DNA from: a virus
Taxonomy: Duplodnaviria; Caudoviricetes
Length of the DNA stretch: 64,000 bases
Strand: one strand, 5' to 3'
Virus record (IMG/VR): IMGVR_UViG_3300029288_000057
Location: 64,001-128,000 of that record
Shown here: positions 21,918 to 56,482 of the stretch, piece after piece
Position numbering within the stretch: the stretch's first letter is position 1
How the letters are laid out: every line of letters starts with the position of its first letter
Program-made: the position numbers and the translations under genes
The notes under the pieces: generated by a model
The model's database searches: none
What the model was told of the DNA's origin: nothing
Seen by the model: only the letters and a program-made list of their open reading frames with translations

Positions 21918-23048
21918 TTAATTCCAGTTTTCGTTTTTATCTACGGATACGTAATAGGTATCGGGGTTAAAATATTTATCACAGGCTTTTAAGACCTGTC
22001 CCAGGTTGAAGTCTTTTCTTTTAAAAAGTTTTTTGCTGTCCCAGTTTGGTTGTCTTATATATTTGAAAGGGTAGTTATATCTTTCGATTTCATTTTTCTT
22101 GAAGTTGATTTCAAGGTATTTTTTGATGGAGTTAAATCTTTCCTGGGTGATGAACTTTTCTTTGTTGGCCATTACTTCTTTGATGGTTGAGATGAATTCT
22201 TCCACATTTTCGTTGGAGGCTTCGCTGGAGATGAATATGGAGCCGTTTGTATTAAATTCCTGCAGGTAGCAATGAATATAATATACGAGTCCTTTTTTCT
22301 CTCTTACTTCCTGGTAAAATGGGGATTGGAGTCCGAATCCGAACAGTTTACAGATAAATGAGACCATGGCCACATCTTTATCTTTTACGATGGGGGAAAC
22401 AAGGATGATGGATGATTTTTCTTTAAAGTCGTTTGATTTCTCGTAGACGACTTCTTTTTTCTTTTCCTTCAGTTTCAATTTACCTTCTGGAATAACAAGG
22501 TCTGTTTCGACAAATCCCTCCAGAGAGAATTTATTTTTTTTGGATACGTTTATGATTTGGGGGTTTTTGTATTGCTGGTTGAAGTGTTCTTCACAATCTT
22601 TGAGGGTGATTGCTTCTATACTTTCTCTTTGACCTATGGCATTATAGTCCCCGTACAATTTTCTCAGCAGGTTAAGTGCATGAGCTTCGTTTTGTGTATT
22701 GAAAGAGTCTTTATATTCTTCCAGCACGATTAATTTTTCCTTATCTAGGGTTTCCTGTGTAACGTTAAAGTTTTTCAATCTTTCGTAGAATATATATTTC
22801 CATTTGTTGATATATTCGTCGAGGCCTGTGATGTGAAAGCAGATTACATCTGAGGAGGTATATGCGTTCCATTGTATTCCGTCTTGGTCGAATGATTTTT
22901 GTAGGTCTTCGAATGTTTTGCACATCAGGTGTTCCATAAGGTGGGAAATTCCGTAGGTGCCAGGTTTTTCAATAAATGTACTTCCGTGGTATACCATATA
23001 AAATCCTGAGAGTTCGGTTTTGCTTTTTAGGTTGATTAAATTTTTCAT
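21918..23048 (-). CDS. M16 (insulinase/pitrilysin) family zinc peptidase
   Basis: GISHLMEHL (HxxEH), NAYTS, EVREKKGLVY. Confidence 0.92.
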   Translation of the reverse strand: MKNLINLKSKTELSGFYMVYHGSTFIEKPGTYGISHLMEHLMCKTFEDLQKSFDQDGIQWNAYTSSDVICFHITGLDEYINKWKYIFYERLKNFNVTQETLDKEKLIVLEEYKDSFNTQNEAHALNLLRKLYGDYNAIGQRESIEAITLKDCEEHFNQQYKNPQIINVSKKNKFSLEGFVETDLVIPEGKLKLKEKKKEVVYEKSNDFKEKSSIILVSPIVKDKDVAMVSFICKLFGFGLQSPFYQEVREKKGLVYYIHCYLQEFNTNGSIFISSEASNENVEEFISTIKEVMANKEKFITQERFNSIKKYLEINFKKNEIERYNYPFKYIRQPNWDSKKLFKRKDFNLGQVLKACDKYFNPDTYYVSVDKNENWN

Positions 23049-28616: not shown

Positions 28617-29528
28617 TTAAATTTTATTATTTCTAACTGAGTCTTTTATTTCAATGTAAATGGGTGAAGCCCCAGCGTACTTTTCTACAACATCGAGCTT
28701 TATCTGTTCTATAACGTTTTCGATTTCATAAGCGTGAACCTCATCTTCAATATCCAATGACAAAAGTAACATAAATTTTTCTTTCCCAATAAACATTGTT
28801 TGAATTTTATTTATGTGTTTGACGATTGAGTATTCATGAATTATAGATTTTATGTCAGCACGAACTTCTCTTGGCACACTTTCTCCAACCATAAGCTTTC
28901 TGAGTTCATTAGAGAGCGTATAAGAGATGATAATAAGGATTGAGCCCACAAGTATTGACCCGATGGCATCGAAGATTGGGGACACTGTAAATGCCAAAAT
29001 CGTCGTAATAAGAACAACAATTAATCCCAATAGCGCAGCAAAATCTTCCAACAATATAACCATAAGATTTGTATTGCTCATGGCAATTATGGTTTTATAC
29101 AGTGATTCTTTATGTTTAAGTTGATTATATGCAACTCTAAAGGAGTTAAATTCTATTACAATAGCAATACTCAACACAACGAATGCCCACACCACGTTTT
29201 GTATTGGCTCAGGATTAATCAGCTTATGAACTCCTTCGTATACGGAAAATCCCCCTCCCACAAAGAACAATAAAATAGCGACCATAAAACCCCAGAAGTA
29301 TTCTTCCTTTCCATATCCGAAAGAGTGTTGTTCGGTGGGGACTTTTTTTGTTCTTTTATTTCCTATGAGCAAGAATATTTGATTAAAGCAGTCTGCGGTT
29401 GAATGGATAGCCTCGGCCATCATTGCGGCGCTGAACGTTATAATAGCAACAATGAATTTGATAACGGTGATAATAAAATTCCCTGCTAATGCTACGAATA
29501 CTGCTTTTAATGAGTTTGCTTGTGACAT
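28617..29528 (-). CDS. Cation diffusion facilitator (CDF) transporter
   Basis: AEAIHSTAD, HSFGYGKEEYFW, LLEDFAA, six TM plus cytosolic domain. Confidence 0.92.
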   Translation of the reverse strand: MSQANSLKAVFVALAGNFIITVIKFIVAIITFSAAMMAEAIHSTADCFNQIFLLIGNKRTKKVPTEQHSFGYGKEEYFWGFMVAILLFFVGGGFSVYEGVHKLINPEPIQNVVWAFVVLSIAIVIEFNSFRVAYNQLKHKESLYKTIIAMSNTNLMVILLEDFAALLGLIVVLITTILAFTVSPIFDAIGSILVGSILIIISYTLSNELRKLMVGESVPREVRADIKSIIHEYSIVKHINKIQTMFIGKEKFMLLLSLDIEDEVHAYEIENVIEQIKLDVVEKYAGASPIYIEIKDSVRNNKI

Positions 29529-29813: not shown

Positions 29814-30422
29814 TTATTTGTGGTAATCTTCTTTATATTTCATGGACCAAGATGGGTTTGGCCTGTACATTGTGTTGTACAAATAGTCATAAACTTGTTT
29901 CCAGTCTGTTTCTGGATTAAATCCTGCTTTATCTTCAAAGAGTACATTAAAATACATTTTCTTGTAATAATATCCGAATGACCCTTTTGAGTCTGTGATT
30001 TCTGGATTTTCGTTTATGTATTTAAAATCAATTCCATCTTTTTTAAATTGCTCATTGTAAAATTCAATTTCTTGTGGATATGAAGAAGTAAACATGATGA
30101 TGATAGTATCAGGTCTTTTAGATAAAAGCTGCATGGTTTCTTTTGCATATGGATAATAGACAACTTCTTTTACAGTTTTTCTATAATCTGGTTTACATAT
30201 GGTACCGTGCACATCAAATACCCAATATGTTTCAAACCACTGTTTCTTTTCAGCGTGTTCAAACATAGTTTTAATCCAGGTAAGAATTTGTGGCGTGGAT
30301 TCTTTTTGTTCTAATTCTTTAATTTTCTTTTCTAACCAGCCTATGTATCTAGCTGGATAATAAGCTCCACTTAACATCAAAATGCTACCTGTATCCTTTT
30401 CAAATTCTTCTTTTAAGCCCAT
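29814..30422 (-). CDS. HAD-superfamily phosphatase-like protein
   Basis: VFDVHGTI, FTSS, FEDKAGF. Confidence 0.65.
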   Translation of the reverse strand: MGLKEEFEKDTGSILMLSGAYYPARYIGWLEKKIKELEQKESTPQILTWIKTMFEHAEKKQWFETYWVFDVHGTICKPDYRKTVKEVVYYPYAKETMQLLSKRPDTIIIMFTSSYPQEIEFYNEQFKKDGIDFKYINENPEITDSKGSFGYYYKKMYFNVLFEDKAGFNPETDWKQVYDYLYNTMYRPNPSWSMKYKEDYHK

Positions 30423-32095
30423 TATTTTTTGTTAACTAAATACAAGTTTTTTGAATCATTTAATAATATACCAGCCTTCGTGTAGAAAACTTGAGTAGTT
30501 TCGTCAACCAAACTACATTTAAACTTAGCCAGCGGCTGCATATCCTCATTTCTAAGGAATATTAGCTGGTTGTCTTCTGGCATGATAATATAATTGTTCG
30601 GATTGTATCCAAAATGTCTTATGGATGATAGTGGATATGAATATTTGTCTACATTCAGTCCATTTATCTTAAACAAGTTGAATTCTACTTTTCCATTCTT
30701 TATTGTTTGGGCAATTCCTACATTTCCGTTCTGATAAACATCACTTAGCACTTCATCATATATGATTGTGTCCAGATTATCATTTGTGTTAAATCTCAGA
30801 TATGTGTTCTTTCCGAAATTTTGTATCATTCCATTGTACTTTTTAAAGCTGCTTCCGAACACTTCTTTTGTTCTGAATTTAATATGAGTTCCAACAGTTT
30901 CGTCGAGGAAAATAGTAAACATTTTATCTTTTTCAATCACAACAAATATGTTCCCATATTGTTTGGCCATCACCATATCTTCAATGCCCATATCATCCAT
31001 TTCAATTCTTTGAAAGGTATTTAAGTCGTATTTGAAAAACTTTTTGTTTTCAAAAACAAACAATCCCTTATCGGTTGGTAGCGGTGCCATGTCCTTGCTT
31101 GTTCTTGGTATTCTTCCAAGCTCCTTGTAATAACTTTTGTCTTTTAAACTATAAACGACTATTTCGTCTTTAAGAGCCACACAAGCCATGTTGTTACTGC
31201 AATTGACATATCGAATTTCAACATTGTTTAGCATTGGTGTAATTGTTAATTCTCCTTCTTTTTCTACAACCTTATCAATGTTAATTACGTGGATTGTCTG
31301 AGTTGCAGCGTCAAGACTTAATATAAATCTTTCTCCATCTTTAAATATTCTTGTAAACTGTTCCATCAAATTCTTATCCTGTAATGGATGATAACATTTT
31401 GGAACAATCAGGTCTTTATCATTGTCAAAGACTGTGATTTTGTGAATTGCACGTTCAGGAAGGCTTTTGTATTTTGAATGTGTTCCTTTGTAGGGATGTA
31501 TGTTTGTTAAGAAATTAAACACTACAACTGCCAAGGCGTAGTAATCACTTTCTTTACTAATTTTTCCAAAGTTTAAATGGTCTCTGATGTCGTCCAATAA
31601 TTTACCAGAATGAACGGTTCCTGGGGTTTGATAAGAGTCTGTATCAATAAAAAATGTAGTTCCAGAATCATTCATCATAATGTTAAATGGATTAAAATCT
31701 CCAATAACAATTTGCTTTGCATGTACAGAATTGATGCTTTCTATAAGCGTCCTTACTACTTTTATTTTAATTTTGTCTGTTAATCCTTTTGTGTTGCAGA
31801 AATTATAGCTATAGGCCGAATATAAAGGAAAAAAATCCTGAGACAATTTCTTCATTATGAAACCTGCTATTTTTTTATTTTTGTTAAAAAGAAGTTCTTC
31901 GGGTTTTATAAAAATTGAGCCGTCTAATGCAGAAAGACAGTCAAGTTTTTTTTCAGTGAACAATGGGTTTATTTGATGATAGACTTTAGCAACCTTTCCT
32001 TTGCCCATATCTATAATCATTCCTTCTCCGCCTCTGGCAATTTCCTTGCTTTCGTTTATGTTAACGACGTCTCCAACTTTATTGAACAGCTTCAT
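30422..32095 (-). CDS. Ser/Thr protein kinase (TerY-P triad type) with beta-rich C-terminus
   Basis: ARGGEG, VAKVY, IGDFNPFNIM, IDTDS. Confidence 0.88.
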   Translation of the reverse strand: MKLFNKVGDVVNINESKEIARGGEGMIIDMGKGKVAKVYHQINPLFTEKKLDCLSALDGSIFIKPEELLFNKNKKIAGFIMKKLSQDFFPLYSAYSYNFCNTKGLTDKIKIKVVRTLIESINSVHAKQIVIGDFNPFNIMMNDSGTTFFIDTDSYQTPGTVHSGKLLDDIRDHLNFGKISKESDYYALAVVVFNFLTNIHPYKGTHSKYKSLPERAIHKITVFDNDKDLIVPKCYHPLQDKNLMEQFTRIFKDGERFILSLDAATQTIHVINIDKVVEKEGELTITPMLNNVEIRYVNCSNNMACVALKDEIVVYSLKDKSYYKELGRIPRTSKDMAPLPTDKGLFVFENKKFFKYDLNTFQRIEMDDMGIEDMVMAKQYGNIFVVIEKDKMFTIFLDETVGTHIKFRTKEVFGSSFKKYNGMIQNFGKNTYLRFNTNDNLDTIIYDEVLSDVYQNGNVGIAQTIKNGKVEFNLFKINGLNVDKYSYPLSSIRHFGYNPNNYIIMPEDNQLIFLRNEDMQPLAKFKCSLVDETTQVFYTKAGILLNDSKNLYLVNKK

Positions 32096-32864
32096 TTTCG
32101 TCTTCTATAATTTCTACAAAAGTTATATGCGCAATAGACAAATCATCACTTGGGGCAATGTTTTTGTCGTCAAGAATATTGCAAATTCTTGCAAGTCCTA
32201 TTTTGTTGTTTAAAAGAAAACCACTTTCGAAAAAACGTTTTATTATTTCGTCCTTTTCGTCATCAGTTATATATCTGTTCTCATCATAATTTCTAAATGA
32301 ATCAATTCCATCACTCATTACAGCAATGGTTTTTTCAATTTTAAAATTATATTTGTAAACATTGTTTTTCCACACATCTGAGAATAGGCTTGTCAAATAA
32401 TAAGCAATGTAGTCTGGCGCATTCTCATTGGTTGGTTTTATTGTGTGAATTTTCCCGTCAATGTAAATACTTCCATCTCCAACAATAATTGAATATGACT
32501 GTTTTGTTTTTAAGTTTACAGCAGATAGTACTATTGTTGAGAGTATTTCGGTTAAATCAAGCACAAAATAATTGAATGAGTATCTCAGTTCATTAAAAAA
32601 CAATTCAATTAAAGTGTGCACAACATCTTCCAAGTTTGATTCTTCGTTTATGCTTTCAAGAAAAGTTTTGTGTTGAATGGCTATTTTCTTGAATATTTTT
32701 GCAAAAAGTCCAGACGCAAAATATGAATCTCTCCCAGTAGAACAGCCATCAAATACAATGATGACTGCGATTTGATTGTAAGAGAAGACGAGGGATTCGT
32801 CTTCACACCTGTGGGCGTGAGCTCTCCCTCGTCTTGTTACTTGCCGTGATTTAACTTCAAACAT
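32079..32864 (-). CDS. PP2C-like protein phosphatase
   Basis: GRAH...CEDE, VFDGCS, VGDG, MSDG, DDLS. Confidence 0.88.
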   Translation of the reverse strand: MFEVKSRQVTRRGRAHAHRCEDESLVFSYNQIAVIIVFDGCSTGRDSYFASGLFAKIFKKIAIQHKTFLESINEESNLEDVVHTLIELFFNELRYSFNYFVLDLTEILSTIVLSAVNLKTKQSYSIIVGDGSIYIDGKIHTIKPTNENAPDYIAYYLTSLFSDVWKNNVYKYNFKIEKTIAVMSDGIDSFRNYDENRYITDDEKDEIIKRFFESGFLLNNKIGLARICNILDDKNIAPSDDLSIAHITFVEIIEDENEAVQ

Positions 32865-32867
32865 TTT

Positions 32868-33566
32868 TTAGAAGTTTAAATTCTGAGAAATGTTCTGGCC
32901 GTTTGAAACGCTTGTCACAGAACTGCTGATGATAGCAACAGCTTTTCTGATGTTGTCACCAAGAACTGCTAAAGACTGAAATCCCAAAGCGTCAAATGCT
33001 TCTTTGAAATACTGGTCTTCACCAATTCCCAACAGGACAGAAGAGAATGTCATAATGTTCTGCTCTTCTTTGTTCAGTTCAATCAGTTTGTCTTTCACAT
33101 ACTGAGCATCTGAGTCAGGAGAGGCATTGTTTTCGCCGTCAGTAATTACAAAAAGAATAGTTTTTGCTTTTACGCCAGTTTTCTGGAGAGAATCTCTGTA
33201 ATCAATTGCCTTGTCCAAAGCCATTCTTGCAGCTGCGTATAATGCAGTTGCACCGTTTCTTGGAGACAGTTTGAATTCTTCAACTTCTGTTACTGGCTGA
33301 AACCCTGTGAGAACTTCAACATCATTATCAAAAACAATAGTTGATATTAACAACCTGTCTTTAACATGGCTTTTTGACATATTTTCAACGAATTCATTGG
33401 CTGCTTTATTCAGCTCTTCACACCTTGTGGTGCTCAAACTTGTAACCCGCTGAGACATAGACCCAGATAGGTCAAATGCAAATACTGCATTTATCGTTTC
33501 TTCGACTTCAATGTTTTCAGGATTAAAATCCGCATCTCCGCCAAAATCAAATTTAACTTTTTCCAT
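32868..33566 (-). CDS. vWA domain protein (TerY-like)
   Basis: DLSGSM MIDAS, GATALY, VITDG. Confidence 0.88.
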   Translation of the reverse strand: MEKVKFDFGGDADFNPENIEVEETINAVFAFDLSGSMSQRVTSLSTTRCEELNKAANEFVENMSKSHVKDRLLISTIVFDNDVEVLTGFQPVTEVEEFKLSPRNGATALYAAARMALDKAIDYRDSLQKTGVKAKTILFVITDGENNASPDSDAQYVKDKLIELNKEEQNIMTFSSVLLGIGEDQYFKEAFDALGFQSLAVLGDNIRKAVAIISSSVTSVSNGQNISQNLNF

Positions 33567-33585: not shown

Positions 33586-34395
33586 TTATAAAATGTCGTC
33601 TGTGCTTTTGACGAACTTGATTCCTAATGCTTTTGCCTCATCGTAAATTGGTTGTGCCAATTTTTCGAATGTAACCCCAGGGGCAACTTCTCCTGGAACA
33701 GGGGACATACAGTCTTCGAGAATAACGAATTTCTTAGCAAGAGCTTCGTCAAACTTCATAGCCTGTTTCAATGAGGTAGCTGTACAATGTGTTTTAGCTT
33801 CACCTGCAAAATAAACGACATCATAATCGTTAAGAATTTTTGCAAGTCTGTCATTAAACTGAGTTCCATCTTCTCCTGGAATTGGAATGTTTGCCTGGAA
33901 AACTCCGAAATGCTCAGTTAAAGGATGAACGCCTTTTTTTACAATCTTATGGAACAAACATTCTGATGTTGACCAGTCTTTTACTGCATCCATAAGTACG
34001 GGGAAGATTGCTGCGCCTTCACTTCCATCAACACAATGGACTGGCCATATGCAATGTGGAAATTCTCCTTGTGTTGCAAGGTCTTCTAAATATTTAAGAG
34101 CTGCTTGTGGATAAAACCTTGGAGTCCATATTCCACTTTTCACATCTTCCACAGAAATAATGGTAAATGGATTTGGAAACTTTCCTTCTTTATCCTGCCA
34201 AAATGCTGGATGGCTGATGTCAATAACCATATGGCTGTCCTGAGTTAATCCAATGTAGCCGATTTTGGATTTGTTTCTTGTAATAAAGCTAGCAAGACGT
34301 TCCATGTCTTTATCCGCTCCTGGGACTGAAAGAGCACCAGTTGGTTTGCAGAAGTCATTCTGCCCATCAATAATTAAAACTGCAATTTTTTTCAT
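33586..34395 (-). CDS. pncA: Nicotinamidase
   Basis: IIDGQNDFC, QDSH, WPVHC, GEAKTHC. Confidence 0.85.
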   Translation of the reverse strand: MKKIAVLIIDGQNDFCKPTGALSVPGADKDMERLASFITRNKSKIGYIGLTQDSHMVIDISHPAFWQDKEGKFPNPFTIISVEDVKSGIWTPRFYPQAALKYLEDLATQGEFPHCIWPVHCVDGSEGAAIFPVLMDAVKDWSTSECLFHKIVKKGVHPLTEHFGVFQANIPIPGEDGTQFNDRLAKILNDYDVVYFAGEAKTHCTATSLKQAMKFDEALAKKFVILEDCMSPVPGEVAPGVTFEKLAQPIYDEAKALGIKFVKSTDDIL

Positions 34396-34456: not shown

Positions 34457-34457
34457 A

Positions 34458-34487
34458 AAAAAGCCCCAAAATATTTCGGGGCTTTTG
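34458..34487. terminator. Intrinsic terminator
   Basis: AAAAGCCCC...GGGGCTTTT. Confidence 0.75.
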
Positions 34488-35723
34488 TTATTTTATTTCT
34501 GACGTGTCAGAATTTGTGGTATCATCTTTTTTTTCTGGGGCGTCTCCTGTTGTGTATTTATCATAAAAGACTCCATATACATACACACGATTAAAGTTGT
34601 CTTTCACTCCATAAAGCAATATGTTTGGCTGTCTTGGGAAATCAACTCCGTACATAATAATTTGTGGAGAAACAACCGCATACATTACCACAGCATAATC
34701 TTGAATTTGTGGTCTTGGGTTTTCTTTGACGATTTCTTCTATAAATTTTTTCCAATCTTTTTCTTTTTCAATTGGAATTTCAATAAATTCACGTCCAGCA
34801 AAAATATCGGTTTTTTGTTGTAAACATTTATTGTCGCAGGCATCCTTACAACATTTAAAGATTCCGAATCTTTGTTCCTTAAATGAGTTAATCCATATTT
34901 GTTCGAGGGGAGTTATTAAAATATTGATGAGCTCTCCAAAATCTTTTGTCCAGCTTCTCATTGAGAGACACGGGATAACCTTTCCGTCATAAGTGATTCC
35001 AAGAGATGATATTCCAGCTCCGCATGGCATATCGTTTCTTATATTATCAGAAAGAATTATTCTTGCTCCACTTTTTTCTACCTTTTCCTTAAGAACATTA
35101 AACGCAGCTTCGTTGTCTGGATGGTATAATGCGAGCGGGTTGTTTGGGTCATCATAAACAGTAAATTGAATAGTCCACATTTTGTTGTTTTTTTTCACGA
35201 ACTCTTCAATTGAATCAAAAATATAAAGGTTTTGAATATTAAAATTTGTAATTACTGTATAATTTTCGAATTTTTCTCTTTGTGTGGGTGTTTCCGTTTC
35301 TACTACAAGAACATCAGGAGATACAAATTTTGGATTTAATAATTCTTTTATTTTTTCCAATTCAGAACTTGTGTTTACAGAAATCCCTGTCCAATCGTAT
35401 TTTTTAAGAATTTCAAATGTGGCTGAGTTGGATGAGTCTCCAAGAGAATTAGGATTTACCAAGATTTTACAAACAATATTCTTTTCTTTGAATATCTTTA
35501 GGATTTCTTCATGCATGGAAATGCTCAAAAGAAGCGGGTCTCCTCCACTAATATTAATTTCTTCTGGGGGATATTCAGCAATGGCTTTCGCAATTTTAAG
35601 AATTGTTTCATTATCAGTTTTTGTGTTTCTGACAGATTTGGAACCACAATAAGTGCATCCGTTTTTACACTCTCCTGTAATCTCCCAGATAATTTCTCTG
35701 AGTTTAATGTGCTGTTGTTGCAT
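34488..35723 (-). CDS. Radical SAM/SPASM enzyme (splicease-like) with C-terminal XYG/XYA repeat tail
   Basis: WEITGECKNGCTYCGS, SGGDP, CGAGISSLGITYDGKVIPCLS; tail DYAV/MYAV/MYGV/LYGV/VYGV. Confidence 0.85.
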   Translation of the reverse strand: MQQQHIKLREIIWEITGECKNGCTYCGSKSVRNTKTDNETILKIAKAIAEYPPEEINISGGDPLLLSISMHEEILKIFKEKNIVCKILVNPNSLGDSSNSATFEILKKYDWTGISVNTSSELEKIKELLNPKFVSPDVLVVETETPTQREKFENYTVITNFNIQNLYIFDSIEEFVKKNNKMWTIQFTVYDDPNNPLALYHPDNEAAFNVLKEKVEKSGARIILSDNIRNDMPCGAGISSLGITYDGKVIPCLSMRSWTKDFGELINILITPLEQIWINSFKEQRFGIFKCCKDACDNKCLQQKTDIFAGREFIEIPIEKEKDWKKFIEEIVKENPRPQIQDYAVVMYAVVSPQIIMYGVDFPRQPNILLYGVKDNFNRVYVYGVFYDKYTTGDAPEKKDDTTNSDTSEIK

Positions 35724-35737
35724 AATTTTAAATTATT

Positions 35738-36196
35738 TTATTGTTGTCTACCGCTAATGTCTACGGTAGGGTGACATGCTTCAATAATAAACAACCTTCC
35801 TGGTTCTTCTCTGAGACACAATTCTAGCCTTTTGTCCTCTAAACAGCAGAGCCAGCTTTCTTTGCCATTATAATCGTATTTTTTTACCAACAATTGTTCA
35901 ACATAACTTCTACTAAGATTATAATAAATTACGGTAAACGATATACAAGTATCATTCTTAAAATAACAACTTATTATTCTAAAATTACTTATATCATGTA
36001 CAATCATTTTGCTTTCTTTTTTTAGACTCCTTGTTTCAAGAAAAACATCTTTCTTTTCCCACATTTCTGTTGAATCTGGGCTCATTACATATAGTTCATT
36101 GGCTATAATTTGAAATGAGCTTTTCCCAATGTAGTTTTGGGAAAAAATTAAAGTTGTACAAAAAAGCACAATTAAGAGTAAAATAATTTTTTTCAT
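35738..36196 (-). CDS. Secreted hypothetical protein
   Basis: Bacteroidota-style signal peptide MKKIILLL...FSQ; TATATTTG promoter at 36224. Confidence 0.7.
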   Translation of the reverse strand: MKKIILLLIVLFCTTLIFSQNYIGKSSFQIIANELYVMSPDSTEMWEKKDVFLETRSLKKESKMIVHDISNFRIISCYFKNDTCISFTVIYYNLSRSYVEQLLVKKYDYNGKESWLCCLEDKRLELCLREEPGRLFIIEACHPTVDISGRQQ

Positions 36197-37667: not shown

Positions 37668-38345
37668 TTAAGGAAGTAATAGCGTTGCCAAATTCATGGC
37701 AATCCCAAGTTTGCCGACACATTTACTGGATGTTTTTCCCTTTCCAACAATATAGGCAATGTGTTCGTTGTTTTCCTTCATTTCTTGTTTGTCATTAGCC
37801 ACAACCAAATCACAGTTATTCCTTACTAATGATTCATAGGCAATGTCAATCAATTCTTCGTGAGTCTTGTTTACTTCAAATTTAAACCCCACTAGCCTCA
37901 CTGTGTGGTTCCATTTCTTTATGAATGAGATAATCTTCGGATTAACAACAATTCGGTCTCTGAGGGAATCTATGAAGGCGTGGGGGTCATTACTCTTAAG
38001 TTTAATGTTGGATGGTTTGAACCCAAAGTCGCTTATCGCCATGGAATGAATTACAACATCAACTTTCGGGACAAGTCTTTCCATTATGTCATATACATCT
38101 TGAGTGCTGTCGGCATAAATAACTTCAACCATATTTTTCTCGTTGTCCTCCACCAATGTATGAAGATTACAAACACTTGGAATTGCTGAGCCCTTACTGC
38201 AGACATAATAAATCTTTTCAATATTATGATTGAGATAGAATGTGTTTGCTATCTGTGCACCCAACTTTCCAGTGCTGATGTTTGTTAAAACCCGAACCTC
38301 ATCAATGTGTTCACGGGTTCCTCCGCTTGTTACTAAAATTTTCAT
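37668..38345 (-). CDS. coaB: Phosphopantothenate-cysteine ligase
   Basis: ILVTSGGTREHIDEVRVLTNISTGKLG, MAISDF, LVGFKFE, VVAND. Confidence 0.9.
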   Translation of the reverse strand: MKILVTSGGTREHIDEVRVLTNISTGKLGAQIANTFYLNHNIEKIYYVCSKGSAIPSVCNLHTLVEDNEKNMVEVIYADSTQDVYDIMERLVPKVDVVIHSMAISDFGFKPSNIKLKSNDPHAFIDSLRDRIVVNPKIISFIKKWNHTVRLVGFKFEVNKTHEELIDIAYESLVRNNCDLVVANDKQEMKENNEHIAYIVGKGKTSSKCVGKLGIAMNLATLLLP

Positions 38346-38633: not shown

Positions 38634-39725
38634 TTAAAATTTATAATATTTTTTCATTGACCTTATTAGAAATGGGGTGGGGTCTAACAAACCTTCGGGA
38701 AGAGTTTGTCCCCACTCTTTATCAATATTTCTTAAGAACCCTGGTTTTCTCAATTCCAGATGAAGCATGCTGGTCGGGCGACCTTTGTCTTTCTTGAGAA
38801 CTTGCAGAACGGTGCCAAGCAAATCTCCCGCATTAACCTCATCTCCAGTCTTCCATTGTGAATGTACTTGAATCTCTCCGTAAACGATGAGCCCATCGTC
38901 ACCCTCGATTGAAATAGCGTCTGTGTCGTTCCACCAGTCACAATTTGCCTTTATTCCAGTCCATGGACGAATATCTTTCACAATGCCCTTTTGCACCGCA
39001 TAAACAGAAGTTCCAATTGGAGCATATAAATCAACGCCTCTGTGCCTATCATATCTTCTCATTGCTCCAAATGCTCCAAAATGATGCTTTATCGGAATTT
39101 CAACATCTCGTTCAAGATTTATTCTTAAAAAAGAATTTGAGTCTTCCGTGGTTCTGATTGGTTTTATCAAATTAAACGGCCAACTCCAAATAATTCTTGT
39201 ATCCAGGCCTTCAATAATCTCGTTAACAATATCACGTGGTTTTGGTAATTTTCCAATTCCCGTAACTCCACAAGCAAGCTCTCCATAAACAGGTTCAATA
39301 ACATGACAACCTCTACTGGAAAGTATTTGCAAATTACTTGTACATGCGTCGCTTTCATACATTACTGTATTCATAGCTGGGCATATAAATTTTGGAATGT
39401 TTTTGGGGATTGCAATAAAAGTAGAAGAAACAAGGTCGTCGGCAATTCCAAATGTGAATTTTGCAATTATATTTGCAGTTGCAGGGACACAGACAAAAGC
39501 ATCACAATGTTGAGCTTCCTGAATGTGTGTTATTGTATTTACATTTTCTTCGGTGATATAGTGGCCGTCAGAAACGGCGCCAAGGACGGTGGGAGTTACG
39601 AAGTCAAGAGCATTTTTTGTTGTAATAACGTGAACTTCGTATCCGTTACGCTTAAGCCCACTAATTACATCTGCAGCTTTGTATGCTGAGATTCCACCAG
39701 AAATAGCAACTAAAATAGTTTTCAT
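38634..39725 (-). CDS. coaC: Phosphopantothenoylcysteine decarboxylase (CoaC) fused to M23 peptidase domain
   Basis: GGISAYKA, PATANIIAK, PAMNTVMY, LACGVTGIGKL; then HRGVDL...VYAV...HLE...DP. Confidence 0.85.
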   Translation of the reverse strand: MKTILVAISGGISAYKAADVISGLKRNGYEVHVITTKNALDFVTPTVLGAVSDGHYITEENVNTITHIQEAQHCDAFVCVPATANIIAKFTFGIADDLVSSTFIAIPKNIPKFICPAMNTVMYESDACTSNLQILSSRGCHVIEPVYGELACGVTGIGKLPKPRDIVNEIIEGLDTRIIWSWPFNLIKPIRTTEDSNSFLRINLERDVEIPIKHHFGAFGAMRRYDRHRGVDLYAPIGTSVYAVQKGIVKDIRPWTGIKANCDWWNDTDAISIEGDDGLIVYGEIQVHSQWKTGDEVNAGDLLGTVLQVLKKDKGRPTSMLHLELRKPGFLRNIDKEWGQTLPEGLLDPTPFLIRSMKKYYKF

Positions 39726-44750: not shown

Positions 44751-45800
44751 TTATTTGTTAAATCTTTCGTATGCTTTGTCACTAATTTGGATTGTTTCTG
44801 CCTCTCCAATAAATTCTTTGAGGTTTTTCGAATTTGAATAACTCATCGTTGACCTTAAATAGTCTTCAAAATTTTCTACCCACTGCTCTAATGTATATTC
44901 CACCCTTTGTCTTTTTGAAACCCCCTCAGAAGTTCTTACAACCTCTTTGTGCCACTTTCTTTGTACTTCCTTAGTGGACATACCCCTAAAGCTTTTTGTG
45001 AGCTTAAAATTGTTCCTAAACAGCCATTTTGCAAATTTTGAGTATTGGTTAATTTTTATTTTATTAAAGAGATAGGTGTTCCCACAAGATTCAAGAGCTT
45101 TGTTAAACAATGAACCAATCATAACATAGTCTGCTCCAAGTGCTAATGCTAAAATAACATCAGAAAAATCTTTCATTCCACCATCGGCCACAATTTTTGT
45201 TTGAAATCTATTTTGTTTTTTTATTTCATAGCACTCTCTGATTAAAGACGCCATGGGATATCCAACTGTTGTTTGTTTTGTGGTTAAGCAGGCATTTCCA
45301 TTTCCAATACCGATTCTAACCATATCCACTCCGATTTCTGCAAAAAGCTTATATGTTTCTGGGTTGGCAACATTACCAACCATTAATACCATTTTATCCC
45401 CGTATTTTTCTTTTGCATCTTTTGCCGCACTAATGAGTTTATTCATGTGTCCATTGGCCATATCAATAAGAATGTAAATTGTGTTTTCAGACTGAAAGTG
45501 TTGTTCCATATAATCAATGTTTATATATTGATTGATAAAATCATTCAGTCCAATAGATTTAAACCAGTGGTCACCACCATATCTTGGCTGTTTTTCTCCT
45601 CTTGGGATAATTGCATGAACTCTGTTTTTCGTAAACAAGCTGGCATTTTTATTATTAACAACAGTATCCATTGGGGCTGTAAAAATTGGGAGATATGAGT
45701 TGTAGTAGGGGTCTATTTCTGTTCTTGAGTTAATAAAGCTAATCGTATCTGGCTTAACCCTTAAGTCATGAAAATCTAGTTTTATGTCTTTGTCGTACAT
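44751..45800 (-). CDS. IMPDH/GMP reductase family enzyme
   Basis: TAPMDTV, IDMANGH, GIGNGNACLT, VADGG, FRGM, SEG. Confidence 0.88.
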   Translation of the reverse strand: MYDKDIKLDFHDLRVKPDTISFINSRTEIDPYYNSYLPIFTAPMDTVVNNKNASLFTKNRVHAIIPRGEKQPRYGGDHWFKSIGLNDFINQYINIDYMEQHFQSENTIYILIDMANGHMNKLISAAKDAKEKYGDKMVLMVGNVANPETYKLFAEIGVDMVRIGIGNGNACLTTKQTTVGYPMASLIRECYEIKKQNRFQTKIVADGGMKDFSDVILALALGADYVMIGSLFNKALESCGNTYLFNKIKINQYSKFAKWLFRNNFKLTKSFRGMSTKEVQRKWHKEVVRTSEGVSKRQRVEYTLEQWVENFEDYLRSTMSYSNSKNLKEFIGEAETIQISDKAYERFNK

Positions 45801-51238: not shown

Positions 51239-52624
51239 ATGGAAACAATAAAGAAAAGAATAAGAAAAATATTATTAGAAAATTACATACAAGAAAACAA
51301 TGATAATTTTTTTCGTACTGATATGGTAGTAAAAGATAGCGATAAAAGTGATATTTTAAACATAAAAGATAAACTTAATGAAAAAGGATTTAAAATTTGG
51401 ATTGTTGGGGGGGCGGTCAGAGATACAGTTAAAAATGCTATAAAACTATCAAAAAACCCTACGGATGAAACATTAGATACGCCAAAGGATTTCGATTTGG
51501 TTACAGATGCTGTTCCAGGTCAAGTAATTGATATATTTAAGGATGCCAGTTTTGTTTCAAACATTTTGAATATTGGTGAATCTTTTGCGATTATGTTTCT
51601 TGTCACAAAACACGGAAATAGATATGAATTGGCCACATTAAGAAGTGAGTCTGGTGGAGGAAGGAAGCCAGATTCAGTGCAATATGAAAAAACAATAGAA
51701 AAGGATGCTCAAAGAAGAGATTTAAAAATTAATGCTTTATACTATGAAATATTAGGAACAAATGAAAATGGGTTTTATGGAATAGTACACGATTTAGTTG
51801 GAGGTATAGATGATATTAAAACAAATTCATTAAACACCGTTGGAGACCCAAGAGAAAGGTTTAACGAAGACCCCCTAAGAAAGATTCGTGCTATTCGTTT
51901 TGCTTCTAAAATGGGCTCTCAAATACCAGACAACGTAGCAGATGCAATCAGAGAAGGTGGCACATCATTAACAGACCCCACAGGAAAAATTGTGTCAAAT
52001 GAAAGAATAAGAGAAGAGTTCTACAAGGGAGTTAAAAGCTCAAAAAGTGTAAGGTATTTTTTAGCGTTATTGGTCAGTTTTGATTTTATTAAACACCTAT
52101 TTGCAGACCTTAGAATGTCACCAGACTCTTTTGTTGAAGAGAGGCATCCAATTGTTTTGTTGGCTAATTTATTAAAACGCAATGGAATAAAAGAAATAGA
52201 AAGGAACTTATCAACAAAGAAATACAGCGCTGATGAAATAAACAGCGTTAAGTTTTTAGTGTCACTTCTTGACCTTAAAGAGAACACTGCGTCTGCAATA
52301 AAAAGATTTTATCTTCAAAAGGCAAAGAATTCAAATCCAAAAATAAATGAAAAATTTTACCCAATGACGGATGATGTGATATATAAATTTGCAGATTTAA
52401 ATCACATTGACAAATTGAAAATAAAGAACTTTTTAAGATTGGCAAACGAATTTGTACAGCCTTCTGAATTGTTAAAATCGTTGGGATATGAACGTGAGGC
52501 TCTTGGAATGGCAATTGCAAGACTTGAGAAGGAGTTTTATAAAAACCCAAATAGAGTTAAAAACATAATTAGTTCTGGTGACGCAGAGGAAATAAAGAAA
52601 TTAATCTTTATTGGAAAATCTTAA
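51239..52624 (+). CDS. CCA-adding tRNA nucleotidyltransferase / poly(A) polymerase family
   Basis: VGGAVRD, DFDL, RRDLKINA, EDPLRKIRAIRF, SNERIREE; N-terminal IRKILLE tag. Confidence 0.9.
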   Translation: METIKKRIRKILLENYIQENNDNFFRTDMVVKDSDKSDILNIKDKLNEKGFKIWIVGGAVRDTVKNAIKLSKNPTDETLDTPKDFDLVTDAVPGQVIDIFKDASFVSNILNIGESFAIMFLVTKHGNRYELATLRSESGGGRKPDSVQYEKTIEKDAQRRDLKINALYYEILGTNENGFYGIVHDLVGGIDDIKTNSLNTVGDPRERFNEDPLRKIRAIRFASKMGSQIPDNVADAIREGGTSLTDPTGKIVSNERIREEFYKGVKSSKSVRYFLALLVSFDFIKHLFADLRMSPDSFVEERHPIVLLANLLKRNGIKEIERNLSTKKYSADEINSVKFLVSLLDLKENTASAIKRFYLQKAKNSNPKINEKFYPMTDDVIYKFADLNHIDKLKIKNFLRLANEFVQPSELLKSLGYEREALGMAIARLEKEFYKNPNRVKNIISSGDAEEIKKLIFIGKS

Positions 52625-54367: not shown

Positions 54368-56482
54368 ATGAATTCCGATAAAAGAAATCCATATATTTTA
54401 AGAAGAAACTTCAATTTTTTTAACGAAACAATTTCTCCAGAAGATATTGACGTACAAGTAAACGAGCCTAAAGATACGTTAAATAAAGAAATTTGGGATA
54501 ACGGAAGGTTAAAAAAAGAAGTGAGAATTGCTATGTTAAAAATAGCAAAGGCATTTAAGGAATATTTAAAATTAGACACACGATTAAAAGATGTTATTTT
54601 TACTGGAAGTTTAGCCAACTATAACTGGACTTTGGTGAGTGATATCGATATTCACTTAATTCTTGATTTATCATCAATGGACGAACCTGAAGAGTTCTTG
54701 GCAGAATATATTGCTGCAAAAAAGGCTGTGTGGAACGAAAATCACAACATTAAAATAAAGGGATTTGAAGTAGAGCTTTATGCAAAAGATAAAGAAAATT
54801 TATTTTCATCAAAGGGTATTTACAGCGTTCTTAGAGATGCGTGGATTCAAAAACCAGAAAAATATACACAAGACATTGACGAGCCTGCTATAAAAGAAAA
54901 AGCAGCTGTTGTCATGAATGATATTGATGATTTGCAACAAGCAACGGACGATGAGGAAATATTAACGAAGTCAGAAAAGATAAAGGAAAGAATAAAAAAA
55001 CTAAGACAATCTGGGCTAGAACAGGGGGGAGAATTTTCTGTTGAAAATCTTGCTTTTAAGGTTCTGAGAAAGCTTGGATATTTAGAAAAACTTTCTGACA
55101 TTAAAAAGGGCGCTTTTGATACATCTTTGTCCTTGGCCGAAACGTTGGATGAACACGAAGAAGGAAGTCAACGTCCAAGTTCGATTGGGTCCAATTATAA
55201 TGAAGTAAAGGTTCTATATTCATTGACAAAAGATGATTTTGCATTTGTTCCTGCTAGTCTAAAATATTGGGACATAAACACGGTAAAGGCACAACGATGG
55301 AATTTGTTAGTTAATTTTAGAGATGAAGAGGATTACCAAAGACAAATAAAAAGCAAAAGATTTTTTATGATTTTATATGATGATAAATTGTATTTCTACA
55401 AACCAGAGTACAAAAGACTGTATGATAATCATGAAAATATAGTAGATTCAAAAAAAATGAACCCAACTTTTGTCTACCAGATGAACGAAATAATCAAAGG
55501 GACATTAAATAGTGCAATAACCGAATCTTCTATGAAAACAAAAACGCTTCTCAAAGAAGGGAAAGATGAGGCACCAAAGAAATACGGGTGTTTAATGTTA
55601 GATTTGAACATAAAGAATTGGAAAGAAATTACCGATAAGATAAGCCAGGAAGATGTTTATGATGCACCTGGATTTGAAATAGAAGACAGTCCCCACATTA
55701 CTGCACTGTTTGGCTTCATATACACTGAAACCACGCCAGAAGATGTAAAGAGAGTGACAAAAAAGATATTGAGCGGGAAAGATAAAGTAAAGGTGAAATT
55801 AAAAGAGATTTCTTTGTTTGAAAACAAAGATTATGATGTTTTAAAGTTTGATATTGATTCCTCTGATTTGCATAAACTCAATGAGGCGTTAAGAGAAAAG
55901 TTTCCTTACAAAAACGACCATCCCGATTATCATCCACACATGACAATTGCTTATTTAAAGCCAGGGCTTGGGAAAAAGTACGCAAAAAAATTAAAAAAGA
56001 ATATTGTTTTCGAAAGTGATTCTTTCGTTTATTCATATCCACCAAATGAAAAGTATTATTTCAACTTAAAAAAAGGAGAAAACACTTTGGGGGTTGAGCA
56101 TGGGATTGATGATATGACCGAGGAAAAGGTTGAAATTATAAGAAATTTTATAAACTTTGTTTGTAACAGACTTGAGCTCCAGGAACCAGTATCGATTTAT
56201 CTTCACAAGGGAAGAGATGAGTATATAGTAACAACTGCATCATATGTTCCAGACGAGAATTCAAATCATATCAGATGTAACGGTAGAGCGCTTGTTGATA
56301 TATTAAGAAGCATTGCGCATGAGCTCACTCATAACAGACAGAGAGAGGTTGAGAGTTTTGCGTCTGGGGAAAATGTTCAAACTATTGGCGGCTGGATAGA
56401 AGACGAAGCAAATGCAAAGGCTGGAATTTTAATTAAAGATTTCGCAATGAATCAAGGTTTTGATGAAATTTATGATTTATAA
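54368..56482 (+). CDS. Fusion: Pol-beta-like nucleotidyltransferase + 2H phosphoesterase + zincin-like domain
   Basis: TGSLANYNW...SDIDIH; PHIT...PHMT; IAHELTH...EDEANA. Confidence 0.8.
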   Translation: MNSDKRNPYILRRNFNFFNETISPEDIDVQVNEPKDTLNKEIWDNGRLKKEVRIAMLKIAKAFKEYLKLDTRLKDVIFTGSLANYNWTLVSDIDIHLILDLSSMDEPEEFLAEYIAAKKAVWNENHNIKIKGFEVELYAKDKENLFSSKGIYSVLRDAWIQKPEKYTQDIDEPAIKEKAAVVMNDIDDLQQATDDEEILTKSEKIKERIKKLRQSGLEQGGEFSVENLAFKVLRKLGYLEKLSDIKKGAFDTSLSLAETLDEHEEGSQRPSSIGSNYNEVKVLYSLTKDDFAFVPASLKYWDINTVKAQRWNLLVNFRDEEDYQRQIKSKRFFMILYDDKLYFYKPEYKRLYDNHENIVDSKKMNPTFVYQMNEIIKGTLNSAITESSMKTKTLLKEGKDEAPKKYGCLMLDLNIKNWKEITDKISQEDVYDAPGFEIEDSPHITALFGFIYTETTPEDVKRVTKKILSGKDKVKVKLKEISLFENKDYDVLKFDIDSSDLHKLNEALREKFPYKNDHPDYHPHMTIAYLKPGLGKKYAKKLKKNIVFESDSFVYSYPPNEKYYFNLKKGENTLGVEHGIDDMTEEKVEIIRNFINFVCNRLELQEPVSIYLHKGRDEYIVTTASYVPDENSNHIRCNGRALVDILRSIAHELTHNRQREVESFASGENVQTIGGWIEDEANAKAGILIKDFAMNQGFDEIYDL

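Follow-up and report, generated by a model that had tools for sequence, protein, structure and literature searches.

The stretch of DNA analyzed here (the window; 64,000 nucleotides, positions 64,001 to 128,000 of IMG/VR virus record IMGVR_UViG_3300029288_000057) contains a gene, P0001, for a 411-amino-acid radical S-adenosylmethionine (SAM) enzyme that ends in a tail carrying five tyrosine motifs. P0001 is probably a self-contained enzyme-substrate fusion, with the tail serving as the enzyme's own substrate. Several lines of evidence argue for this reading: the catalytic machinery appears intact and the fold is maturase-like; a flexible tether carries the Tyr motif in a varying number of repeats, an array found nowhere else in the genome; the motif was kept across hundreds of lineages while its surroundings drifted; and neither another candidate substrate nor a partner was found.

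The complete record comprises 290,886 bp from an uncultured phage. As it is an IMG/VR virus record with a CheckV completeness estimate of 91%, the label "phage" is correct, and the virus-encoded gene proposed in an earlier interpretation of the window from its letters alone (the sequence-only reading) stands.

Conservation of the tyrosine motif tail

The motifs of the P0001 tail are DYAV (Y343), MYAV (Y348), MYGV (Y358), LYGV (Y371), and VYGV (Y383). The same five had been listed in the sequence-only reading, and all of them fall inside the interval it gave (approximately 34555 to 34710; Table 1). Y358 was invariant in an alignment of 150 sequences. Not one of 200,000 shuffles of the 115-amino-acid P0001 tail that preserved its composition reached five Y[GA]V motifs; together with the family-wide conservation described below, this led us to reject chance or low complexity as the origin of the motifs. 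In a six-frame scan of the whole record (4,467 stop-to-stop frames of at least 30 amino acids), no frame other than the P0001 tail had at least two phi-Y-[GA]-[VI] motifs (phi, hydrophobic residue).

A word-index search recovered 237 homologues and an exhaustive search of 50%-identity cluster representatives recovered 414 (E ≤ 0.001), of which 178 match at E ≤ 1e-30; almost none of the homologues carries a specific name from any source. Conservation of the tail, which the sequence-only reading had left to be checked, is strongly positive. About 230 of the 240 relatives scored contain [VTI]-x-[VMLA]-Y-[G/A]-V in 1 to 9 copies beyond the final cysteines of the cluster. In 208 homologues the cluster domain could be anchored at its CCKD end, and within this anchored set at least one Y[GA] was present in the tails of 205 (206 if the frameshifted tail of P0136 is read through) and at least two in 174. 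Copy number ranged from 0 to 7 in the anchored set and reached 9 in P0085. The density of Y[GA] was 2.85 per 100 amino acids in the tails versus 0.16 in the enzyme cores of these 208 homologues, an 18-fold difference. Even the most distant members (34 to 36% identity, E ~1e-37) retain the motif, and the sequence between motifs is unalignable.

The consensus has V, T, or I at position −3 (77%), V, M, L, or A at −1 (82%), the Tyr, Gly (58% of Y[GA] sites) or Ala (42%) at +1, and Val at +2 (80%), the last often followed by S/T-P. Among 1,173 tail tyrosines, the next two residues were GV in 260 cases, AV in 192, SV in 20, and GI in 19. Spacing from motif to motif has its mode at 10 to 13 residues, and P0048 and P0205 contain exact tandem duplications of the motif unit. 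Variable copy number, variable spacing, and tandem duplication are the behavior of multicore precursors of peptides that are synthesized by ribosomes and modified after translation (RiPPs). The distance from CCKD to the first motif has a median of 45 amino acids and a 5th percentile of 28, so that the motifs are never close to the enzyme, which fits a tether that needs to reach back into an active site. After the last motif, T/S/N/D/E/K-rich ends comparable to that of P0001 are found family-wide (median, 26 amino acids). Overall, the fusion of enzyme and tail is retained in approximately 98% of the family.

Judged from their sequences, the members without the standard tail appear to be damaged or variant genes, so that the exceptions would support the rule. 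The tail of P0136 continues in another frame as LYGV...MYAV...AYAV and is thus frameshifted, and the protein encoded by P0245 stops just after CCKD and lacks the Tyr tail; the 3' end of this gene adjoins an IS605-type element. P0137 and P0252 terminate in phi-Y-L-V, and P0241 and P0248, which were counted as motif-less, keep single Y-G-C and Y-A-A sites. P0167 and one further family member were also counted as lacking the motif. Two features beside these genes were recorded in passing. The IS605-type element next to P0245 (L029, 3386-5105) consists of TnpB/OrfB with a Cas12f-like domain and a Y1 TnpA, and a second, shorter radical SAM gene (247 amino acids; L007, 3768-4511) lies directly downstream of the family member with the frameshifted tail.

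Domain architecture of P0001

The N-terminal 300 residues look, by sequence, like an active radical SAM enzyme whose auxiliary cluster domain is of the SPASM/twitch type. Pfam Radical_SAM (PF04055) matches amino acids 14 to 131 at 40.7 bits (cutoff, 29.5), and SPASM (PF13186) matches amino acids 234 to 296 at 25.6 bits (cutoff, 21.5). The CxxxCxxC motif is formed by C19, C23, and C26 (nucleotides 35646-35669), and the SAM-binding GGDP motif spans G60 to P63. The cysteine-rich segments CGAG, PCLS, and CCKDACDNKC, previously read as SPASM-like, correspond to the auxiliary set C234, C252, C291, C292, C296, and C300 and, with the radical SAM cysteines, agree with the Pfam domains. In alignments of 102 to 150 homologues, C19, C23, C26, G60, G61, C234, C252, and C292 were invariant, C291 and C296 were at least 90% conserved, and C300 was not conserved. 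The auxiliary domain may be nearer to the twitch type than to a full SPASM domain; a weak match of the family profile to the twitch region of BtrN fits this assignment. No methyltransferase domain was found in P0001.

An AlphaFold2 (AF2) model built from 150 sequences was confident for amino acids 1 to 300, with a predicted local distance difference test (pLDDT) score above 90 in most blocks, and the P0001 tail is predicted to be disordered. The model places an amphipathic helix at moderate pLDDT in the linker (amino acids 324 to 334, KDWKKFIEEIV, nucleotides 34722-34754). A family-wide, leader-like linker helix was nevertheless rejected, as DWKK[FIL]LEE is confined to the closest subclade, and no more than 42 of 240 linkers contain W[KEDQNST][KERQ]. 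P336 and P338 of the linker are at least 90% conserved. Complex prediction between the core (amino acids 1 to 305) and the tail (306 to 411) gave a score of 0.00, which counts neither for nor against binding.

Affiliation of the enzyme

P0001 and 102 family members were compared with the NCBIfam models, and P0001 reached the cutoff of none. The best and most consistent named model was TIGR04133, the "rSAM/lipoprotein system" family of Bacteroidota, which matched P0001 at 31.6 bits (cutoff, 425) over amino acids 5 to 287 and 100 of the 102 members over nearly the full core (best E, 1.3e-16). By their description, TIGR04133 proteins have a lipoprotein encoded by a gene of its own as partner and are not said to carry a Tyr-repeat tail. 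For P0001, the gene to be compared with this partner is the one for the signal-peptide protein at 35738-36196 (see below).

The sequence-only reading had likened P0001 to the PlpX/PcpX-type spliceases, and membership in that family was not supported. The splicease model TIGR04103, which we take to correspond to IPR026482, scored 30.1 bits (cutoff, 725) over amino acids 7 to 89, equivalent to model positions 3 to 85 of 412; it matched 79 of the 102 members (best E, 2.4e-9), always far below the cutoff. The model for GDL-motif peptide-associated maturases, TIGR03913, scored 20.4 bits (cutoff, 591.75) over amino acids 10 to 90 and matched 62 of the 102 members (best E, 2e-9). Both matches to P0001 thus involve the N terminus only. 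A full-text search of the searchable literature did not find TIGR04103. Other maturase models scored in the same range, with P0001 matching HxsC at 26.9 bits (cutoff, 267.9) and HxsB at 23.9 bits (cutoff, 370); among the 102 members, 91 matched HxsC, 36 matched HxsB, and 38 matched WgkB (best E for WgkB, 1.4e-10). The MoaA model likewise gave a weak match, and the HxsC and MoaA matches, like that of TIGR03913, were confined to the N terminus. An identity as a viperin was rejected because the scores were far below the cutoff and limited to the N-terminal half (NF038283, 35.8 bits with a cutoff of 180, amino acids 11 to 121; PADLOC pVip, 41.9 bits, amino acids 11 to 177) and because P0001 has a SPASM-type domain.

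The nearest solved folds in Foldseek searches were PqqE, SuiB, CteB, ChlB, SkfB, anSME, MoaA, and viperin-like enzymes at 11 to 17% identity, the first six being peptide- or protein-modifying SPASM/twitch enzymes. Neighbors of the core in the ESM Atlas comprised viral radical SAM clusters, a PqqE-like cluster, and an rSAM/lipoprotein cluster (TM score, 0.72); no splicease was among them, and the tail query returned no usable match. Against Protein Data Bank sequences, the family profile gave only weak generic matches, to lysine 2,3-aminomutase, BtrN, and MoaA. Among SPASM/twitch radical SAM enzymes, the P0001 family is therefore a deep and distinct clade, and its fold is peptide-maturase-like. 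By the family-model and structure searches made here, it falls outside the characterized splicease family.

The tail as probable substrate: possible tyramine excision or another reaction

In the favored scheme, a flexible linker of 30 to 60 residues would tether a disordered tail presenting [V/T/I]-x-[V/M/L/A]-Tyr-[Gly/Ala]-Val units. The enzyme would cleave SAM reductively, and the resulting 5'-deoxyadenosyl radical would attack each Tyr-centered unit, either on its own tail or on that of a neighboring copy; modification of the neighboring copy's tail is found in dimers of the borosin OphMA. Such self-modification would require no separate precursor, leader, or helper gene.

The architectural precedent is provided by the borosins. 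OphMA and dbOphMA carry a C-terminal core on the modifying enzyme and modify themselves iteratively, so that enzyme and core peptide form one polypeptide with the core at the C terminus, as proposed here for amino acids 339 to 411 of P0001. To our knowledge, no other natural fusion of enzyme and substrate is well known among RiPPs. The borosin enzyme is a SAM-dependent alpha-N-methyltransferase, whereas the catalytic domain of P0001 is of the radical SAM type, and borosins are fungal or bacterial with a single core, in contrast to the viral origin and repeated Tyr motif of P0001.

Given a substrate role of the tail, the foremost candidate reaction would be tyramine excision of the splicease kind, with a likelihood approaching an even chance. 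Spliceases (PlpX/PlpY/PlpA, PcpX, RhaX/RhaA, RcsX, RasX) share with P0001 a radical SAM plus SPASM-type architecture and begin directly at the CxxxCxxC region, with no N-terminal recognition domain. Their substrates resemble the P0001 tail in that Tyr-Gly comes after a hydrophobic residue and frequently precedes Val or Leu, with several copies in some substrates. PlpXY processes MYG and LYG, its splice-tag contexts being AAGYGVV (an engineered GYG form) and RPLYGLP (PMC10533398), and RcsX and RasX also act on MYG and LYG (PMC11626197). The M/L-Y-G contexts in the phage tails are like these PlpA, RcsA, and RasA sites (PMC10533398, PMC11626197), a point in favor of splicing; the hydrophobic −1 residue would then become the side chain of a ketoamide. 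Furthermore, spliceases engineered to carry an activating leader or Y helix at the C terminus work (PMC11414181), and a C-terminal fusion is thus mechanistically feasible. There are also differences: the substrate candidate of P0001 lies within the enzyme polypeptide, whereas spliceases have a precursor of leader and core apart from the enzyme; a Y protein is absent; and the family is phage restricted as opposed to cyanobacterial or proteobacterial, falls below every splicease-model cutoff, and has Ala at +1 in 42% of Y[GA] sites. The XYG motif of the sequence-only reading consequently holds in part: phi-Y-G-V accounts for 58% of the Y[GA] sites, but the remainder are Y-A, and a few Y-S-V sites occur in addition. 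The term "splicease" as applied to P0001 is a resemblance only.

A number of observations weigh against self-splicing or against the tail being a substrate at all. The similarity to the HxsC, MoaA, and viperin models is as weak as that to TIGR04103, and there is no specific sequence link to spliceases. All experimentally spliced sites in the accessible literature are X-Y-G, so the Ala sites fall outside that range. The +1 residues are mixed (G, A, and sometimes S) in 128 of 192 multimotif tails, and one enzyme would therefore have to accept G, A, and S variants. The best-kept residue after the Tyr is Val at +2, for which splicing gives no obvious reason. Only five auxiliary cysteines are conserved, and a full two-cluster SPASM domain has more. 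The AF2 models leave the tail unplaced, with pLDDT values of 37 to 58 in P0001 and 43 to 49 in the single-motif homologue P0133. Finally, the tails of P0013, P0024, P0029, P0115, and P0235 end in a D[DE]DLPF tip like that of bacterial single-stranded DNA-binding protein (SSB).

The conservation of Val at +2 would suit a Tyr-x-Val cross-link or Val-directed chemistry at least as well as splicing. An alternative nested within the substrate reading is thus that the tail is modified in cis by a reaction other than tyramine splicing; as an overall estimate, independent of the substrate reading being granted, we regard this as somewhat unlikely. Its leading version is a C-C cross-link between Tyr(1) and Val(3), a triceptide-like cyclophane joining the Tyr ring to the Val C-beta; epimerization and Val-directed chemistry are the other options. 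Omega1-X2-X3 is the logic of three-residue cyclophane RiPPs, and the tail motif would conform to it, as Val at +2 is the best-kept neighbor of the Tyr, the +1 residue need only be small (G or A, occasionally S), and one small subclade ends in phi-Y-L-V. The triceptide and repeat-motif maturases (HxsB/HxsC, WgkB, TvgB) resemble P0001 in combining a radical SAM/SPASM enzyme with short motifs repeated in the precursor, repeated-motif precursors being typical of such maturases, and their aromatic-x-x logic is compatible with Y-[G/A/S]-V. In addition, the HxsC, HxsB, and WgkB models (matching 91, 36, and 38 of the 102 members) do roughly as well on this family as the splicease model (79). On the other hand, no cutoff of these families was reached, the hydrophobic −1 residue and the M/L-Y-G-V context match proven splice sites, and triceptide-type precursors are separate genes whereas the motif of the P0001 family is fused to the enzyme. 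We know of no triceptide enzyme fused to its substrate and of no Y-small-V motif for triceptide-type maturases. One repeat-motif maturase, a radical SAM cyclopropyl synthase, is reported to act on valines (PMC10878394). Should the tail be the substrate, we would place these other reactions (e.g., epimerization or Val-directed chemistry) clearly behind tyramine excision in likelihood and the Tyr-to-Val cross-link slightly lower still.

The nearest analogies of P0001 are therefore spliceases and spliceotides in function, the borosin fusion in architecture, and TIGR04133 in sequence, and none of them is a family assignment. The searchable literature yielded no description of a natural fusion between a radical SAM enzyme and its substrate or of this phage family.

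The tail as a possible binding element or radical site

A further alternative is that the tail is not a substrate and instead forms a disordered array of short linear motifs for partner tethering, self-association, or target delivery, with the enzyme acting on a nucleotide, a cofactor, or another protein. We consider this a minority possibility. The tails are disordered in the AF2 models, which would be in line with such an array, and the D[DE]DLPF ends of the five homologues named above resemble the acidic C-terminal tip with which bacterial SSB recruits partner proteins. These tips hint that the tails can also serve as protein-binding elements; P0001 itself and its closest relatives terminate in E-I-K. 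The best single-model matches for the N-terminal half were viperins (NF038283, pVip), and viperin-like enzymes were among the fold matches. However, the viperin scores lie far below the 180-bit cutoff and cover only the generic radical SAM half, and viperins have no auxiliary-cluster domain. A binding motif would also not obviously require an invariant Tyr followed by a small residue and Val, in 1 to 9 copies, on one enzyme family alone, and the motif clusters nowhere else in the genome and is accompanied by no conserved partner gene in the 23 loci compared (see below).

Glycyl-radical enzymes such as pyruvate formate-lyase carry the signature RVxG-Y-A-V. That the tail stores a protein radical like their Gly loop, with the N-terminal domain as a built-in activase, is highly improbable: the signature superficially includes Y-A-V and the N terminus weakly matches an indoleacetate decarboxylase activase (E, 1.8e-4) and a PHROG NrdG-type family (E, 1.4e-3), but the radical Gly of the signature precedes the aromatic residue, whereas here −1 is V, M, L, or A and any Gly comes after the Tyr, 42% of the sites have no Gly, and the motifs lie in a disordered repeated tail instead of a folded barrel.

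Distribution and search for a separate substrate

We compared 23 loci, comprising the window, IMG/VR loci, and contigs with diverse homologues, by clustering their open reading frames (ORFs) with all-versus-all BLAST. No conserved neighbor (precursor, helper protein, protease, or transporter) was found across these loci, in which only local synteny of near-identical phages was observed. One multilocus ORF cluster was rejected as a partner gene because it consisted of antisense frames within the radical SAM gene. A profile of 13 tails searched against proteins of 24 to 123 amino acids (among 5.8 billion) detected no stand-alone tail-like peptide at E ≤ 10, a weak negative given that small ORFs are undercalled in metagenomes. 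The statement of the sequence-only reading that no separate precursor gene is evident nearby can therefore be extended to the 23 loci and to the remainder of the genome. Its suggestion that the tail could be released by a nearby protease found no support. The M16 peptidase is real (Table 1), but it lies 11 kb away, and no protease is conserved in the 23 loci.

The homologue-bearing contigs are phage-like, 80 to 456 kb in length, with replication genes and many small ORFs around the family gene. No homologue was found in GenBank phages (tblastn). Among cellular genome contigs (185,579 species), three matches were obtained, two on short contigs of metagenome-assembled genomes, which look like misbinned phage. 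The third (L011) was rejected as a family member, being an unrelated PqqD-associated SPASM enzyme. On this sequence evidence, the family appears to be essentially restricted to large uncultured phages and the fusion appears to be obligate.

Gene neighborhood

The features of P0001 and of its surroundings are given in Table 1. The terminator-like hairpin right after the stop codon, which was not in the output of a consensus terminator scan, suggests that the gene ends its transcription unit. The signal-peptide protein encoded upstream is 55% identical in the closest relative phage, has no NCBIfam match, and was absent from the more distant of the 23 loci. The three genes beyond the pncA-like gene look like a kinase-phosphatase-vWA triad. 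The pair of coenzyme A pathway genes is retained in the relative phage locus L002. The protein with the 2H phosphoesterase domain possibly contains a cyclic-nucleotide-degrading counterdefense domain inside a much larger protein, to judge by its domain match, and the two-stretch match of the thymidylate synthase suggests a large insertion.

Table 1. Coordinates of P0001, its parts, and other genes in the window
Feature	Position	Strand	Basis or remark
P0001, whole gene; 411-aa radical SAM/SPASM-type enzyme with C-terminal Tyr-motif tail	34488..35723	(-)	ORF list, translation, Pfam, homologues
Radical SAM core, aa ~1-230	35034..35723	(-)	PF04055, conservation, AF2 pLDDT mostly >90
SPASM/twitch-like auxiliary Fe-S domain, aa 234-300	34824..35024	(-)	PF13186, conservation, BtrN twitch match, fold neighbors
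Linker, aa 301-338	34710..34823	(-)	AF2, conservation; Pro-rich stretch precedes first motif
Five-Tyr-motif array, candidate cis-substrate	34569..34700	(-)	Motif positions, shuffle test, family conservation
C-terminal end, aa 386-411 (...TTGDAPEKKDDTTNSDTSEIK); polar, acidic, low-complexity	34491..34568	(-)	Translation
Intrinsic-terminator-like hairpin: AAAAGCCCC, loop, GGGGCTTTT, then T-run; GC-rich, directly after stop	34457..34486	(-)	Read from sequence
Signal-peptide, Cys-rich protein, 152 aa	35738..36196	(-)	Co-oriented, 14 bp upstream of P0001
Nicotinamidase/pyrazinamidase-like, PncA type	33586..34395	(-)	NF008623, E 3e-11; directly downstream of P0001, own upstream region
557-aa kinase-like protein, 261-aa PP2C phosphatase, 232-aa vWA protein	30422..33566	(-)	Beyond pncA; weak Pkinase/RIO match for the first
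CoaB-like DFP domain protein	37668..38345	(-)	Coenzyme A pathway
CoaC-like flavoprotein fused to M23 peptidase domain	38634..39725	(-)	Coenzyme A pathway
M16 peptidase	21918..23048	(-)	
Cation-efflux (CDF) transporter	28617..29528	(-)	
IMPDH/GMP reductase family protein	44751..45800	(-)	
CCA-adding/poly(A) polymerase-type nucleotidyltransferase	51239..52624	(+)	
704-aa protein with 2H phosphoesterase domain, aa 436-551	54368..56482	(+)	Domain also matches anti-CBASS Acb1 (PF23474, 27.7 bits, cutoff 27)
Thymidylate synthase, 439 aa	57731..59050	(-)	Matched in two stretches (aa 12-360 versus 266-position model)

Implications

The most specific form of the substrate reading is a one-gene self-splicing phage system in which tyramine would be excised from each x-Tyr-Gly/Ala-Val unit, leaving a multivalent alpha-ketoamide "warhead string." This string would form covalent bonds that trap serine, cysteine, or threonine proteases of the host, such as housekeeping Lon/ClpP or the protease effectors of antiphage defense systems. 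Taken as a whole, this scenario is unlikely. If it were true, P0001 would be the first spliceotide known from a virus and the first radical SAM enzyme carrying its substrate as a natural fusion, and it would be a splicease that accepts Tyr-Ala sites.

More generally, if the tail is the substrate, this large, phage-restricted family would be a peptide-modifying radical SAM system that nature has put into one polypeptide, and a single gene would suffice to assay a new or extended radical reaction at Tyr-Gly/Ala-Val sites. Splicease-leader fusions, the nearest counterpart among engineered proteins, date only from 2024. The family would also point to a previously unseen form of host manipulation by jumbo phages, possibly via protease inhibition, and could yield small tags, complete in themselves, by which beta-amino or ketoamide groups, or cross-links, are introduced into proteins. 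Whatever the chemistry, a Tyr motif that stays invariant over hundreds of phage lineages points to a function that merits the search.

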